Assembly: GCF_024298765.1 (NCBI RefSeq)
Contig: NZ_CP101210.1
Length of the DNA: 64,000 nucleotides
Origin: Escherichia coli
Lineage (GTDB): Bacteria > Pseudomonadota > Gammaproteobacteria > Enterobacterales > Enterobacteriaceae
Strand: one strand, 5' to 3'
Part shown: positions 10,690-16,001 of the stretch, in pieces
Position numbering within the stretch: position 1 is the first letter of the stretch
How the letters are laid out: each line of letters opens with the position of its first letter
Translations under genes and position numbers: made by a program
Notes under the pieces: generated by a model
Database searches by the model: none
Told to the model about the DNA's origin: nothing
Seen by the model: the letters and a program-made list of their open reading frames with translations, nothing else

Positions 10690-12219
10690 ATGAGACGGGC
10701 AATCAGCTACATCAGATTTTCAAGTGAACGACAACTAAAAGGGGACTCTGTACGCAGACAATCTAAGCTGGTCACTGACTGGCTTGATAAGAACCCTGAG
10801 TTTTACTTGGATTCATCCTTGAGCTTTAAAGATTTGGGGAAAAGTGCTTTTAGTGGTAAGCACTTGAAAGGTGGCTTAGGTGACTTTTTAACCGCTATCG
10901 AGAAAGGGCTTGTTAAAGCTGGTGATACACTACTAATCGAGAGTTTAGACCGTCTCTCACGTCAGGATATTGATATTGCTTCTGAGCTATTACGTCGTAT
11001 CTTAAGGGCTGGTGTAGATATAGTCACACTGAGCGATGGTGAACATTACACACGAGAAAGTTTAAAAGACCCGTTATCCCTGATTAAAAGCATTCTGATA
11101 ATGCAGCGGGCGCATGAGGAAAGTCTGAGGAAGTCTGAGCGTGTCCAAGCTGCATGGAACCGTAAAAAAGAACTCATCTCCGAAGGTATCAAGGTATCTA
11201 GGCGTTGTCCTGCATGGTTAAGGCTGAATGATGACCGTCGAACATTCACTATCATCCCCGATAAAGTGGAAGTTGTTAAACGAGCATTTGACCTGAGATT
11301 ACAGGGTTTAAGCTTTTGGGCTATCACCAGAACTTTAAACGATGAAGGCCACTTGTCATTGAATCAATACACACCTAAACAAAAGGGATGGTCTGATACT
11401 GCTGTAAAGAAACTACTCAGAAATCGTGCTGTGATTGGATGTTTCACACCTGCTGGACGTGAAGAAGTTCAGGGTTACTACCCCGCAATAATCAGTGAGT
11501 CACTATTCTATCGAGTACAGCAACTGAACACAGGGCAATATGGTAGGGCTTCTGTATCAAGTAATCCGCTATCAGTCAACTTGTTCAGGGGTATCATCAA
11601 ATGTTCTGAGTGTGGGGCTACTATTGTTCTTGGTGGATATGCCTTAAAACGTTTTGGGATGTACAGATGCCCTAATCGTTCAGCTAACAGGTGTAGTGCA
11701 AAGGCTATCAGTCGTAAGCAAACGGATACAACTATCCTTTACATGCTCGCATTATGCGACCGTTTTGAAACTGAAAATACTGACACTATTGATAGCCTTA
11801 AATTACAGCGTGAAGATTTGCAGCGTAAAATCTCAAAAATGGCAGAACTCGCTATTGAACTCGATGACATGACAATTATCACAGAGAAATTACGTGATAT
11901 GAAGAATGCGCTATCAAAACTCAATCATGATATCGAAGAGGAAACAAAGCGGATAAAGGCCATCACAACTGGAAGCCTCAAAGATATTGACAGGACAACA
12001 AAGGAAGGGATGATAGAGACACAGCTACTTATCAAGGGCGTACTCAAAGAAATAGTTATAGATGCCGCTAAACGTCGCTGTAAAGTGACTTTTCACAACG
12101 GTAAGGTAATTGACCTACCTATAACAGAAAACCCCTCAGAGGACGTTACAGAGGCCATACAGTCGCTTTCTGAAGTCACTGAGAGGGGTTTAATAGATGT
12201 TGATGTAGTAGCGATTTAG
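10690..12219 (+). CDS. Large serine recombinase (integrase-type)
   Basis: About 509 aa: N-terminal resolvase-type catalytic domain (AISYIRFSSERQ with the candidate Ser nucleophile; SLDRLSRQ), a Cys-rich zinc-ribbon-like segment (CSECGATIVLGG...YRCPNRSANRCS) and a C-terminal predicted coiled coil. ATG at 10690 preceded by AGGT. Confidence 0.8.
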   Translation: MRRAISYIRFSSERQLKGDSVRRQSKLVTDWLDKNPEFYLDSSLSFKDLGKSAFSGKHLKGGLGDFLTAIEKGLVKAGDTLLIESLDRLSRQDIDIASELLRRILRAGVDIVTLSDGEHYTRESLKDPLSLIKSILIMQRAHEESLRKSERVQAAWNRKKELISEGIKVSRRCPAWLRLNDDRRTFTIIPDKVEVVKRAFDLRLQGLSFWAITRTLNDEGHLSLNQYTPKQKGWSDTAVKKLLRNRAVIGCFTPAGREEVQGYYPAIISESLFYRVQQLNTGQYGRASVSSNPLSVNLFRGIIKCSECGATIVLGGYALKRFGMYRCPNRSANRCSAKAISRKQTDTTILYMLALCDRFETENTDTIDSLKLQREDLQRKISKMAELAIELDDMTIITEKLRDMKNALSKLNHDIEEETKRIKAITTGSLKDIDRTTKEGMIETQLLIKGVLKEIVIDAAKRRCKVTFHNGKVIDLPITENPSEDVTEAIQSLSEVTERGLIDVDVVAI

Positions 12220-12358
12220 TATCTCTTATTAGGATTCACTGAGTACTTTTTAAGCTTTGAAGCTACCCGACCAGCGTTACTGTTAGCATTGGTGAGGTTG
12301 GTTTTTTCAGCTTCTTCACAAAAAAGCTTCAGAGGTCTTCTTAACCATCCGCTAAGCA

Positions 12359-12402
12359 GGAGAGAGGGTGGTACATGAGAAAGAACCCTCACTTCTAAAA
12401 AG
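12359..12402 (+). repeat. Copy A of recurring element motif GAGAGAGGG-N-ACCCT-N-AAAAG
   Basis: ggagagagggtggtacatgagaaagaaccctcacttctaaaaag; contains the inverted repeat GAGGG...CCCTC; about 140 bp after the large recombinase stop. Confidence 0.5.
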
Positions 12403-12807
12403 ATTTTTTAGCTATTTTGCTTAAAACCATATCAAAAGATACATTTTATTGATTCAGGTCAAAGACAAAAGCATTGACAAAATGGTAAAATTGTTCACAT
12501 GACCTTACTTAACAGACTTTTTAAGAGCTTTTGAGAAGCTTGTTGAACAGACACTCTTTCTGGAGTGTTGTCTTTTACTTAAGAGGTTTGTTTAGATAAC
12601 TCTCAAGGCATCTCTTAAGAATCACTGTTAAGGTGATACTCTCCCTTCGGGTTATATCGTATCTCTTCTCCCGTTAGACAGTTTTTCCTAGCAACTTCAT
12701 AGTTATCTGTCAAGTGCCTTTGAAGATTCCATCAAGACCTCTGAATCTGACCTGATATAGATGCTGTGAAGGCATATTCTCTAGGTCTGTGTAGCTTACT
12801 TAGTGGG

Positions 12808-12853
12808 AAGAGAGGGATATAGTGACCATAGGGGAACCCCTCCTGTTAAAAAG
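12808..12853 (+). repeat. Copy B of the recurring element motif
   Basis: aagagagggatatagtgaccataggggaacccctcctgttaaaaag; same GAGGG...CCCTC arrangement, same orientation. Confidence 0.45.
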
Positions 12854-13356
12854 ACTACTTAGAAGTCTGAGACTTTAGTAAAATCTGTGAATATAGCTTC
12901 TCAGACGCTCTGTAACGCATTCTAAGCGATTTTACCACCTTATTTTAAGGTGGGTGGTACATCCCTATAGGTTACCCTAAAAATGGGGTTAAAACTCGCT
13001 ACAGAGCTTTCTATGAGGCTTGGTAGAGTTGCATAAATTTTACACAACACTTATTCAGCTTCTAAATTTTTTTATAAAAAATCGTAGTAACCCCTCTACA
13101 TTCCCCTTCACCGATAATCTTCAAAAATATCTATCACAGGTCTATACCTGCTAAGTACCCGTCACTACGCCTAAGTGGTCCCCTTTGCAAAATTTTAAAA
13201 TATCTATTGACTTTTTATGTGAACTGTTATAAAGACCGCTCCATCTCTTAGGCATACCGTTATAGCATACTAAAAAGGTATAGCTAACCCCCTGTAAAAA
13301 CCATACCGATTAGCCTTGTAAAACACTTTATCGGTACATTATACTCAACTCATCAA

Positions 13357-13926
13357 ATGAGTAAGGCAAATGAGTATATTATGGCTAACATTGGTTATAT
13401 CCGAGTTTCATCAATCCAGCAGATTACAGACCGTCAACTTGAAGGGGTCGTACTGGATAAGATATTTACTGATAAAGCATCTGGGAAGAATACAGACCGT
13501 CCACAACTAAAGGCTATGCTCGATTATGTTCGTGAAGGTGATGTTATCCATGTACACGACTTGTCACGTTTAGGGCGCTCTACCGTGGATGTATTAACGC
13601 TGGTGGATAAACTTTCACAGAAAGGTATCAAGGTTCACTTTCACAAAGAAGGTCTGATAACTGGTGACGATAACCCCACGTCTAAGATGATTCTCACAAT
13701 CTTTTCAGCAGTGGCTGAAGCTGAACGTAAAATGATGCTTGAGCGTCAACGAGAAGGCTATGAAGCTGCTAAAGCTGCTGGTCGTGTAGTTGGAAGGGGT
13801 AACGGTAAAGCGGTTGACAGAGAAGGTATTAAAGCTGCTCTTGCTGCTGGTGGTTCAATCGCTAAAGTAGCCGCTCAATTCAACGTTGCCAAGTCAACTG
13901 TACAGCGTATTAAAGCTGAAGATTAA
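13357..13926 (+). CDS. Small serine recombinase, resolvase/invertase type with C-terminal HTH
   Basis: 189 aa; GYIRVSSIQQ catalytic motif, IFTDKASG and LSRLGRS motifs typical of Tn3/gamma-delta-type resolvases, C-terminal HTH (IAKVAAQFNVAKSTVQRI). Alternative start ATG at 13381. Confidence 0.82.
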   Translation: MSKANEYIMANIGYIRVSSIQQITDRQLEGVVLDKIFTDKASGKNTDRPQLKAMLDYVREGDVIHVHDLSRLGRSTVDVLTLVDKLSQKGIKVHFHKEGLITGDDNPTSKMILTIFSAVAEAERKMMLERQREGYEAAKAAGRVVGRGNGKAVDREGIKAALAAGGSIAKVAAQFNVAKSTVQRIKAED

Positions 13927-13939
13927 GTCAGGAAATACA

Positions 13940-14623
13940 TTAGATTTTTCTTCCAAATAAACTTGGGAGATTCTTACGGTTTCTTGCTTGCATCATTATT
14001 TCTGGGCTAACAAGTTTTTTTAATTCGCTTCTGTACTCATCAATAGAACACTCATCCGCAACAAGTTTTGAAATCAGGTCTTCAATAGACATAACATCTT
14101 GTTGCAGGAAATCAAGTTCACGAGACAAGTGCTTTTTTTGATTCTCTAACTTTCCTATCTCAGCATTTAAGTTATCTACATCTGTCGCCAATTTCTCTGC
14201 CTGAGATTTCAAATTACTTGTATCTTCTTTTTCTCTTTCGATAAGGTTTTTTTGTTTCTCAATCTTCAACTTTGACGTCAGTCTAGCTGACTCTTCAAGA
14301 TTTTCAGCTTCTACTTTTTGTCTTGCTCGCCATGCGGTTGCCTTGATTTGAAGTAGTGTTACAAGGTTGCTGAAGTAAGGGAAAAAGGTCGCCAAAATGA
14401 ACCCTAGCCCTACGGGATAGCATAATGTTTTTAGATAGAAGTCTTCCGTCGATGTGATTTGTTGAATACGAGTAACAACCGAAGCCTCACTAAGACACAT
14501 GATAGCAATGCTTTTCCAGTTAAATCCCACCCATGACAAAATGATGTAGCCCCATAAAGGGTTAGCTACTCGTTCCTTCAACGCCTGCTTAACTGATTCC
14601 GTGATACTTTCTTCACTACTCAC
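13940..14623 (-). CDS. Hypothetical protein with two N-terminal hydrophobic segments and a C-terminal predicted coiled coil
   Basis: 227 aa ORF confined to the insertion; hydrophobic segments WGYIILSWVGFNW and PVGLGFILATFFPYF, then a K/E-rich heptad-like region; no family recognised. Confidence 0.6.
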   Translation of the reverse strand: MSSEESITESVKQALKERVANPLWGYIILSWVGFNWKSIAIMCLSEASVVTRIQQITSTEDFYLKTLCYPVGLGFILATFFPYFSNLVTLLQIKATAWRARQKVEAENLEESARLTSKLKIEKQKNLIEREKEDTSNLKSQAEKLATDVDNLNAEIGKLENQKKHLSRELDFLQQDVMSIEDLISKLVADECSIDEYRSELKKLVSPEIMMQARNRKNLPSLFGRKI

Positions 14624-14714
14624 AATTACTGCTCCATAGAAAACTCTGGTTTGAGAAATTTTAATGCGAATCCAATCAGTTAGATAGACCTGTAAATAGC
14701 AATTTTATAGAAGT

Positions 14715-14756
14715 CGAGAGAGGGATGACTAACACCCTGCATAGTTTCCTGAAAAG
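14715..14756 (+). repeat. Copy D of the recurring element motif
   Basis: cgagagagggatgactaacaccctgcatagtttcctgaaaag; same orientation; about 95 bp upstream of the minus-strand 227 aa gene start. Confidence 0.45.
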
Positions 14757-14954
14757 AGACTTCGCATATTATCTATATATTTCAATAAGTTATGCTAAAA
14801 AGGAACTATACCAATACTGCATAGATTCTGCGTAAAACTGCTTGGATACTTGGAAATCCACCATTAAATTGCATAGTCATTCACCTGATAAAGCCTGTTA
14901 TTAACAGGTGATAGGATTCGGATGTTCTCATAGTGTATTTAGGGAATTAATATC

Positions 14955-16001
14955 AGCATTACATTTTTATTTTCGGCCATCGCCTCACCGTTTTGGGGTG
15001 GACTCGCCGACCGTAAAGGCCGAAAACTCATGCTATTACGCTCTGCCCTCGGCATGGGCATCGTGATGGTGTTGATGGGACTGGCACAAAATATCTGGCA
15101 GTTTTTGATCCTGCGGGCGCTTCTTGGGTTACTTGGCGGATTTGTCCCCAACGCTAATGCTCTTATCGCCACACAAGTACCGCGTAATAAAAGCGGCTGG
15201 GCGCTGGGTACGCTCTCCACAGGCGGCGTTAGTGGTGCGTTGCTCGGCCCAATGGCTGGCGGCCTGCTCGCCGATAGCTACGGCTTACGTCCGGTATTCT
15301 TTATTACCGCCAGTGTGCTCATACTCTGCTTTTTCGTCACCCTGTTCTGCATCAGAGAAAAATTCCAGCCGGTCAGCAAAAAAGAGATGCTGCACATGCG
15401 GGAAGTGGTGACATCACTTAAAAACCCGAAACTGGTACTCAGCCTGTTTGTCACCACGTTAATCATCCAGGTGGCGACAGGCTCAATTGCCCCCATTCTG
15501 ACGCTGTATGTCCGCGAACTGGCGGGTAACGTCAGTAACGTCGCCTTTATCAGTGGCATGATCGCCTCGGTGCCAGGCGTGGCGGCTCTGCTAAGCGCAC
15601 CACGACTCGGCAAACTTGGCGATCGAATCGGACCCGAAAAGATCCTGATTACAGCGCTGATCTTTTCTGTACTGCTGTTGATCCCAATGTCTTACGTTCA
15701 GACGCCATTGCAACTTGGGATTTTACGTTTTTTGCTCGGTGCCGCCGATGGTGCACTACTCCCCGCCGTACAGACACTGTTGGTTTACAACTCGAGCAAC
15801 CAGATCGCCGGGCGTATCTTCAGCTATAACCAATCGTTTCGTGATATTGGCAACGTTACCGGACCATTGATGGGAGCAGCGATTTCAGCGAACTACGGTT
15901 TCAGAGCGGTATTTCTCGTCACCGCTGGCGTCGTGTTATTCAACGCAGTCTATTCATGGAACAGTCTACGTCGTCGTCGAATACCCCAGGTATCGAACTG
16001 A
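14955..16001 (+). pseudogene. mdtG: mdtG 3' fragment (C-terminal ~348 codons), separated from its 5' part by the insertion
   Basis: In frame from 14955: [43 protein letters not shown]... to ...[13 protein letters not shown], recognised as the remainder of MdtG; no start codon or RBS in native context. Confidence 0.85.

Follow-up and report, generated by a model that had tools for sequence, protein, structure and literature searches.

The 4.3-kb region 10651–14956 of the window (the whole analyzed stretch of Escherichia coli DNA, 64,000 nucleotides long) is an island put into mdtG by a large serine recombinase (LSR). Two symmetric sequences at its right end, a terminal inverted repeat and a palindrome, probably belong to two different structures, the repeat to the attP site of the LSR, split by integration, and the palindrome to a separate motif of the island backbone, likely bound by a protein. 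In an earlier note, both had been considered together as recombinase half-sites or operator sequences upstream of a 227-aa gene. The attachment site is an ordinary one of the well-known LSR type, whereas the palindrome matched none of the tested classes (res/hix sites, SOS box, intrinsic terminator and Rfam). Its interpretation, jointly with the phased repeat upstream of it, as a protein-binding operator or architectural site of the family backbone is put forward tentatively, with a probability falling a little short of even.

The island in mdtG and its probable split attachment site

The alignment with the intact mdtG gene of K-12 revealed a 4306-bp insertion, with the host reading split as ...GGTATTGTCTTCAG|CATTACATTTTT..., while the empty K-12 site reads ...GTCTTCAG|CATTACA... 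The mdtG attB was assigned to a region of about 50 bp around GTCTTCAGCATTAC. The insertion was precise relative to the empty site and both joints had only the short identical core TCAG in common. The G+C content of the element was about 40% in comparison with about 53% in the flanks, and the same element (99.5–100% identity) was present in mdtG of eight complete E. coli genomes; CT265 and APEC E12049 are examples of carrier strains. Terminal inverted repeats of the transposon or insertion-sequence type with a target-site duplication were rejected, as the repeat cores begin 9–12 bp inside the joints, no transposase was present and the insertion site was identical in all copies. Coordinates of the features are collected in Table 1.

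Table 1. Features of the mdtG element and of its two joints, given as positions in the window.
Feature	Position	Strand	Remarks
TCAG, left joint	10647–10650		common to attL, attR and empty mdtG; predicted crossover AG at 10649–10650
P' arm	10651–10689	+	motif CTAAACAC at 10663–10670; TCCCTAAA core of the earlier note at 10660–10667; TATAAT at 10651–10656
LSR gene	10690–12219	+	509 aa from ATG; N-terminal motif YIRFSSERQ
ORF-less stretch (1.1 kb)	12220–13356		conserved in the family; strongly structured segment at 12895–13020
Small serine recombinase gene	13357–13926	+	189 aa, resolvase/invertase type; position variable within the family
Cargo ORF	13940–14623	-	227 aa, with coiled-coil region; missing from most family members
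Non-coding right-end block (~230–250 bp)	14679–14909		family-wide; its last motif is the palindrome
Conserved palindrome core	14883–14909		ACCTG 14883–14887; CCTGT 14894–14898; ACAGGT 14904–14909
12-bp insertion GATAGGATTCGG	14910–14921		only in the window's version of the element; makes the outer ...GTGA of the 31-mer
P arm	14922–14952	+	motif GTGTATTTAG at 14933–14942; TTTAGGGA core of the earlier note at 14938–14945
TCAG at attR	14953–14956		crossover dinucleotide AG at 14955–14956, from the K-12 comparison and the dyad center

The interrupted gene encodes an MFS efflux protein and is left as two fragments, 10469–10666 and 15030–16001, with the stop codon of the truncated 5' fragment (10664–10666) lying within the P' arm. 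The 5' fragment is co-directional with the LSR gene, hence in the integrated state transcripts reading through from the mdtG promoter could extend to the integrase.

The LSR has a complete architecture, with the Pfam Resolvase, Recombinase and Zn_ribbon_recom domains (PF00239, PF07508 and PF13408) all scoring above their cut-offs, whereas a match to NCBIfam XisF/Ccr-like remained below the cut-off. The presence of a recombinase with these three domains beside one end of the element resembles the phiC31, Bxb1 and A118 (4KIS) systems, although the similarity to the A118 integrase structure 4KIS itself was weak and at the protein level only marginal (E 3e-4).

The comparison of 10660–10675 with the reverse complement of 14930–14945 gave 13 matches in 16 positions including a perfect 8-bp core, TCCCTAAA/TTTAGGGA, thus the terminal inverted repeat reported in the earlier note is real and its coordinates were correct. 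The check proposed there, i.e., joining the two ends into a putative attP, was conducted and gave a positive result. In the reconstructed joint, right end to left end (...CATAGTGTATTTAG-GGAATTAATATC-AG-TATAATGGGTCC-CTAAACAC...), the dyad symmetry peaked at 17/26 when centered on the AG within the common TCAG, whereas other neighboring centers scored 6–10/26 (five centers tried). The null expectation was 6.8 ± 2.3 of 26, which for 17/26 gives P of about 6.5e-5 per test. The motifs GTGTATTTAG and CTAAACAC are each placed 12 bp from the central AG, one on each side. Because the joined ends form a dyad with the motifs on either side of the AG, the terminal repeat was taken as LSR half-sites. The suggestion of recombinase half-sites is therefore supported for this repeat, its two copies corresponding to the P and P' arms of the site of the left-end LSR, and the repeat is very probably the split attP of the adjacent 509-aa LSR with the crossover at AG. 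The attL was nearly identical in L002–L004, with one P' arm base differing. No natural mdtG-type attP joint was found among 5426 genomes and in IMG/VR, so the mdtG-type attP remains a reconstruction.

Such an arrangement suggests the following course of events. Integration would split attP into a P arm on the right (GTGTATTTAG, 12 bp, AG) and a P' arm on the left (AG, 12 bp, CTAAACAC). On the rejoined attP an LSR dimer would occupy both arms and cut both strands at the central AG, and the cut ends would exchange partners with the mdtG attB. Excision would be the reverse reaction at attL and attR, with the participation of a directionality factor. LSR integration requires only the integrase and short att sites and involves cutting at the crossover dinucleotide, whereas serine-integrase directionality factors bind the integrase protein and not DNA (PMC9638900). 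No directionality factor for the LSR was identified in the element.

As in phiC31, Bxb1 and A118, the rejoined site is an imperfect dyad on a dinucleotide also present in the target, and the insertion is precise, with no real target duplication. In contrast, this element has arm sequences and a target (mdtG) of its own and, unlike in those three sites, the mdtG-type recognition motifs are encountered also in sister recombinases targeting yecE and yegS. The element thereby provides a new sequence-resolved LSR/attP/attB set (mdtG target, AG crossover and a motif spacing common to the yecE and yegS enzymes); genome-integration tools are built from sets of this kind.

Different recombinases go with different arms, as the tonB/yciI type and the yegS type each possess their own arms and crossover. 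The tonB/yciI-type LSR shares 33% identity with that of the mdtG type, and the terminal repeat of the tonB/yciI type is CCGAATAG/CTATTCGG, with the copies 28 bp apart and a 13-bp identity with attB. The yegS-type repeat, GTGTTTAG/CTTAACAC, has its copies 26 bp apart, which is the mdtG-type spacing. For the yegS type, a natural right-end/left-end joint was found in a tandem array, followed by an intact 547-aa LSR gene.

In the metagenome contig OOBX01000469.1 (L040/L041), two yegS-type copies lie head to tail with an attP-type joint between them, an arrangement that is either a natural tandem array or an assembled concatemer. The tonB/yciI type inserts exactly at the tonB start codon, with the 13-bp identity TCAAGGGTCATTG keeping the ATG, and this 11.6-kb element separates tonB from its native upstream promoter region (L053 2140–2260 and 13725–13800; L054 represents K-12 tonB-yciI).

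A -10-like hexamer directly after the crossover was observed in three LSR types: TATAAT in mdtG (window 10651–10656), TAGTAT in yegS (L041 junction) and TATTGT in tonB (L053 2165–2175). In the tonB type, the promoter-like site TAGACT-17-TATTGT is complete only across the joined ends. For the mdtG type, we infer only that TATAAT could be the -10 region of an integrase promoter, the upstream half of which would come from the right end. In Tn4451 and Tn4453, moved by TnpX, the circular joint creates a recombinase promoter. The mdtG element resembles them as a small LSR-moved element with TATAAT right after the crossover, but differs in that the -35 partner of this hexamer is poor.

The family of LSR islands

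The full-length elements of the family are about 11 kb long and occupy four or more integration sites: mdtG, yegS (the same LSR type also at another target), the tonB start codon upstream of yciI and yecE. The family loci cited are L003, L004, L005, L052, L053, L058, L059 and L060. The order in full-length members is the LSR gene (plus strand), a minus-strand operon, 1–2 kb with no ORFs, a variable gene, the conserved block, the palindrome and the LSR-specific arm. The operon encodes a Dit-like protein, a tape-measure protein, an HNH endonuclease and unnamed proteins. At the variable position, members have an AP2-type gene, no gene at all, or a small serine recombinase gene of one of three unrelated types, which may point either way; the three recombinase types are 34–35% identical and have different recognition helices. 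The element in the window is a deletion derivative, in which about 7 kb of the operon is gone and the 227-aa cargo gene was gained. Genes for capsid, terminase or recognizable replication functions are absent from the family elements.

Relatives were identified in Citrobacter, Pluralibacter, Pectobacterium, Cronobacter, Klebsiella, Enterobacter and Serratia, in some of which the backbone is inverted relative to the LSR. The Enterobacter and Serratia relatives carry AbiTii and SduA_C (Shedu-type) genes, and these, along with the variable cargo, point to hot spots for anti-phage-type cargo in the family. Variable minus-strand cargo genes flank the conserved block on either side (L011 and L014 2711–3376, L013 2739–3572, L064 20257–21186, L065 11686–13553 and 16776–17780), examples outside the window being ORFs of 221 and 277 aa. 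The 227-aa coiled-coil ORF of the window corresponds to phrog_4780; for this ORF and the core proteins, no informative name beyond coiled-coil noise was obtained from PADLOC, PHROGs or NCBIfam.

Vibrio cholerae PLEs are phage-parasite islands mobilized by an LSR, and the elements described here are similarly small chromosomal islands moved by an LSR (PMC9638900). The relatives of the mdtG element carry phage-type genes and anti-phage cargo (AbiTii and SduA_C). No sequence relationship with PLEs was seen, however, and the mdtG family differs in having Dit-like and tape-measure genes. In the searchable literature, nothing relevant was found on mdtG combined with a serine recombinase, on the protein accessions or on a satellite combined with a tape measure, and a family of LSR islands with tail genes was not found either; the family is apparently uncharacterized. 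The palindrome is mainly of use as a handle on this family of LSR islands, with its tail genes, variable recombinases and defense-type cargo, occurring in about one-tenth of E. coli genomes.

The 1.1-kb ORF-less stretch is truly non-coding, with mismatches to relatives distributed evenly over the codon phases and many indels. Within it, the segment 12895–13020 (~126 nt) gives a very strong fold on either strand (z of about -5.8). The full-length elements carry a second, inverted copy of this segment (~70% identical), placed in the gap that separates the HNH gene from the next one (L005 5593–5756, L053 8687–8849), and the long outer stems of the two copies show differences that look compensatory. 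The segment had no Rfam match and could be an antiterminator-like RNA or a DNA signal.

The palindrome and the conserved right-end block

The sequence 14881–14911, TCACCTGATAAAGCCTGTTATTAACAGGTGA, had the coordinates and letters claimed for it, but the description as a near-perfect 31-bp palindrome was too strong, as only 11 of 15 positions pair in the 31-mer. Its components are an outer pair of perfect 7-bp arms, TCACCTG/CAGGTGA, and an off-center perfect 7-1-7 palindrome CCTGTTATTAACAGG (15 bp, 14894–14908). The last two bases of the outer arms are due to the 12-bp insertion. The CCTG/CAGG tetramers, two direct and one inverted, start at 14884, 14894 and 14905, which places them 10 and 11 bp apart, about one helical turn. 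Chance symmetry was estimated with Markov-1 simulations of the 4306-bp element. There were 10 perfect 7-bp inverted repeats with spacers of 0–17 against 6.35 ± 3.1 expected, and only a single 31-mer paired at 11/15 positions or more, where 0.83 would be expected. The symmetry alone is thus within chance for an A/T-rich element, the comparison that the earlier note had asked for.

Conservation in related copies, also raised in that note, was in turn strong, with the core invariant or 92–100% conserved in 39 unique copies. The right-end block was carried by 559 of 5426 complete E. coli genomes (~10%). The homology between elements with different LSRs ends at 14909, exactly after ACAGGT, so the common backbone closes with this motif, and what follows is the swappable module, made up of P arm, crossover, P' arm and LSR gene. 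Metagenome loci were collected through an upstream anchor not containing the palindrome, which yielded 28 loci, 27 of them with enough sequence; the pattern ACCTG-N6/7-CCTGT-N4/5-(A/C)CAGGT was located at the same position in 27/27. Almost all of the other related copies had the core as well.

In the 39 unique copies, ACCTG, the G following it and CCTGT were invariant, whereas ACAGGT was conserved in 92–100%. The intervening positions were mostly at 59–87%, with A<->T changes only, and the loop length varied by one base. The first repeat occurred as two variants, ACCTGATATTG and ACCTGTTTATG. For the right-end block overall, the mean majority fraction was 0.90 with 54% invariant columns, and the invariant pentamers amid free A/T positions form a sharper pattern than most of the block. 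Each element has a single copy of the motif. In L011 and L014, the right half of the motif was overwritten by a cargo gene and in L028, L038 and L084 it was mutated, indicating that the motif is dispensable in at least some resident copies. Since the whole block is highly conserved, the palindrome could also be conserved as part of something larger.

The palindrome lies 54 bp inside attR in the window and 42 bp in relatives, and about 86 bp upstream of the LSR start codon in the circular form. Copies of the yecE type have ~60-bp insertions at the spacer between the palindrome and the P arm, and a duplication related to the 12-bp insertion (…GATTCGGATGTTCT…) was seen in L048; together with the 12-bp insertion itself, these indicate that the spacer tolerates indels.

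A scan of the genome collection for the motif returned only Escherichia and about seven chance matches, and pattern scans of IMG/VR only the same elements within predicted prophage regions or chance matches. With the 230-bp block as the query, no phage genome sharing it was detected at E up to 5. The right module, the internal structured segment and a 185-aa core protein also gave no real match in the phage database, which leaves a mimic of a helper-phage cos/pac site unsupported. No Rfam match was obtained for 10400–15100 at E up to 1, and RNAalifold run on 39 block copies detected no consensus structure and no covariation. No convincing conserved sigma-70 promoter beside the palindrome was found with a scanner and by inspection; the only scanner match nearby was on the minus strand at 14731–14702. 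The generic word CCTG[AT]4 was only mildly enriched in non-coding DNA, too weakly to define a regulon.

Possible roles of the palindrome

According to the tentatively preferred reading, the palindrome would be a part of the family backbone remaining outside the swappable LSR/att module. The phased CCTG/CAGG tetramers with A/T-only spacers most likely provide a site for a protein oligomer on one face of the DNA. From its location just inside the P arm, such a site could regulate transcription running toward the integrase or affect DNA shape beside attP. The data show the island boundaries, the dyad, the LSR domains, the conservation of the motif and its independence from recombinase type, whereas protein binding, the identity of the protein and its regulatory target are inferred. 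The protein-coding content of the deletion derivative, comprising only the two recombinases and the 227-aa ORF, with no other candidate binder, counts against the operator reading. Of the earlier proposal of an operator upstream of the 227-aa gene, the operator-like role is plausible, but it is not specific to that gene, a cargo absent from most members, with the palindrome center 278 bp from its start codon. In lambda, P2 and 186, whose integrases are tyrosine recombinases, phased direct repeats beside attP are bound by proteins of the Xis/Cox/Apl type. The short repeats about one helical turn apart adjoining the core attachment site are alike, but the integrase here is a serine one and no Xis-like gene was found in the element.

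The independence of the motif from the recombinases bears on several other readings. A binding or crossover site of the neighboring small serine recombinase (res-, hix- or gix-like), serving inversion, multimer resolution or cassette exchange, is highly improbable. Between the 189-aa recombinase gene and the palindrome, some 1 kb further downstream, lies the 227-aa gene, and minus-type elements have the block just upstream of the recombinase gene. As in Tn3/gamma-delta res and Hin/Gin hix/gix, a small serine recombinase gene is nearby and the outer ACCTG...CAGGT pair spans 26–27 bp. The half-sites bear a possible resemblance to CTGATAA of gamma-delta res and the gix sequence CCTGTAAA. Nevertheless, unlike in res/hix/gix systems, the motif does not co-vary with the recombinase, being the same beside three types only 34–35% identical, and it is also present in elements with an AP2-type gene or nothing at this position, the recombinase often being absent. 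With one copy per element, there is no partner site. A cognate site of either recombinase was rejected on the same grounds, the motif being single-copy and indifferent to which LSR and which small recombinase accompany it. The half-site interpretation of the earlier note thus fails for the palindrome, which stays unchanged next to LSRs only 33% identical, and regardless of which of the three unrelated small recombinases, if any, is present. For similar reasons, it is very unlikely that the palindrome extends attP as an accessory site for the LSR or a directionality factor. Although the palindrome directly adjoins the P arm, with its center 41–42 bp from the crossover in three LSR types and its Pluralibacter counterpart abutting the P-arm motif, it is identical beside LSRs only 33% identical with different arms. 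The distance is also shifted by 12 bp in the window and by ~60 bp in several yecE-type copies. Moreover, short att sites suffice for LSRs, whose directionality factors bind protein (PMC9638900).

It is unlikely that the palindrome works as a nucleic-acid hairpin, whether to terminate or attenuate transcription where the backbone meets the att/LSR module or as a signal in single-stranded DNA. The stems are kept, the loop differs between copies in sequence and by one base in length, the local fold reaches -10.6 to -10.7 kcal/mol (z about -2.0 to -2.4) and this is the sole stem retained by RNAalifold in the block. On the other hand, both strands lack a U-tract, and scanning 14881–14930 for terminators gave nothing on either of them. 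The stem conserved in relatives is just 5 bp, no compensatory changes occur, the changes to CCAGG and ACTGG break the pairing, and the Pluralibacter counterpart is an A/T-rich CTGTA/TACAG pair. It is also rather unlikely that the palindrome has no function of its own, being a chance symmetry in a block conserved for a role elsewhere (promoter region, packaging site or origin). This would agree with the symmetry being within chance, the ~90% conservation of the whole block and the loss of the right half in some copies, and the family, encoding an HNH endonuclease and tail proteins, must have a packaging signal somewhere. It accords less well with invariant pentamers among free A/T positions standing out more sharply than most of the block, and with a symmetric element at the same place in a relative that blastn cannot detect, save for short motifs. 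In addition, no database phage carries the block, even at E up to 5. The operation of the palindrome as a LexA (SOS) operator or its decayed remnant, linking the right end to DNA damage, is quite unlikely. The E. coli arms are CTGT and ACAG, as in the SOS box, and a canonical box is present at the homologous place in Pluralibacter. In gammaproteobacteria, however, the LexA box has the spacing CTGT-N8-ACAG, whereas it is CTGT-N5-ACAG in the window and N4 or N5 in all Escherichia copies, 3–4 bp short of N8. The LexA-box scan found no CTG-N10-CAG box scoring at least 13 in the E. coli elements; on these grounds the window palindrome was rejected as an SOS box, and the only non-Escherichia example is a single one.

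This example is the Pluralibacter gergoviae element (L060), whose LSR is 66% identical and which likewise interrupts mdtG at TCAG. Short motifs, ATTTCAATAAGTTA among them, reveal the homology of its right end, which has diverged too far for blastn. Beside the P arm, TTCCTGTTCAGC-TCCTGTAAATG-CCTGTATATATGTACAGT contains three CCTGT repeats 10–11 bp apart, the third of which lies within GCCTGTATATATGTACAGTT, a CTGT-N8-ACAG sequence matching the SOS-box consensus at 16/20. The dinI SOS box of the window (AACTGTATAAATAACCAGTA, 4430–4449), the internal positive control of the scan, also scored 16/20. This single case suggests that the position is that of an operator whose binder can change. A further idea, itself rather improbable, is that the phased CCTG(T) repeats and the palindrome form a sensor end. 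A host or helper-phage protein (LexA in Pluralibacter, some other factor in Escherichia) would bind beside the P arm and gate either integrase transcription across the joined ends or integrase access to attR, so that excision would be switched at the att site and not via a repressor cascade. If the motif is a regulatory site beside attP and the Pluralibacter SOS box is real, it would show how such islands decide when to move.

A subset of copies has a 22-bp insertion, TAGGGGTTGGAACAAGCCCAAC, just upstream of the palindrome, with its own short stem GTTGG/CCAAC. It was observed in L003 (31740–31765) and also in L006, L026, L031, L036, L044, L049 and L056.
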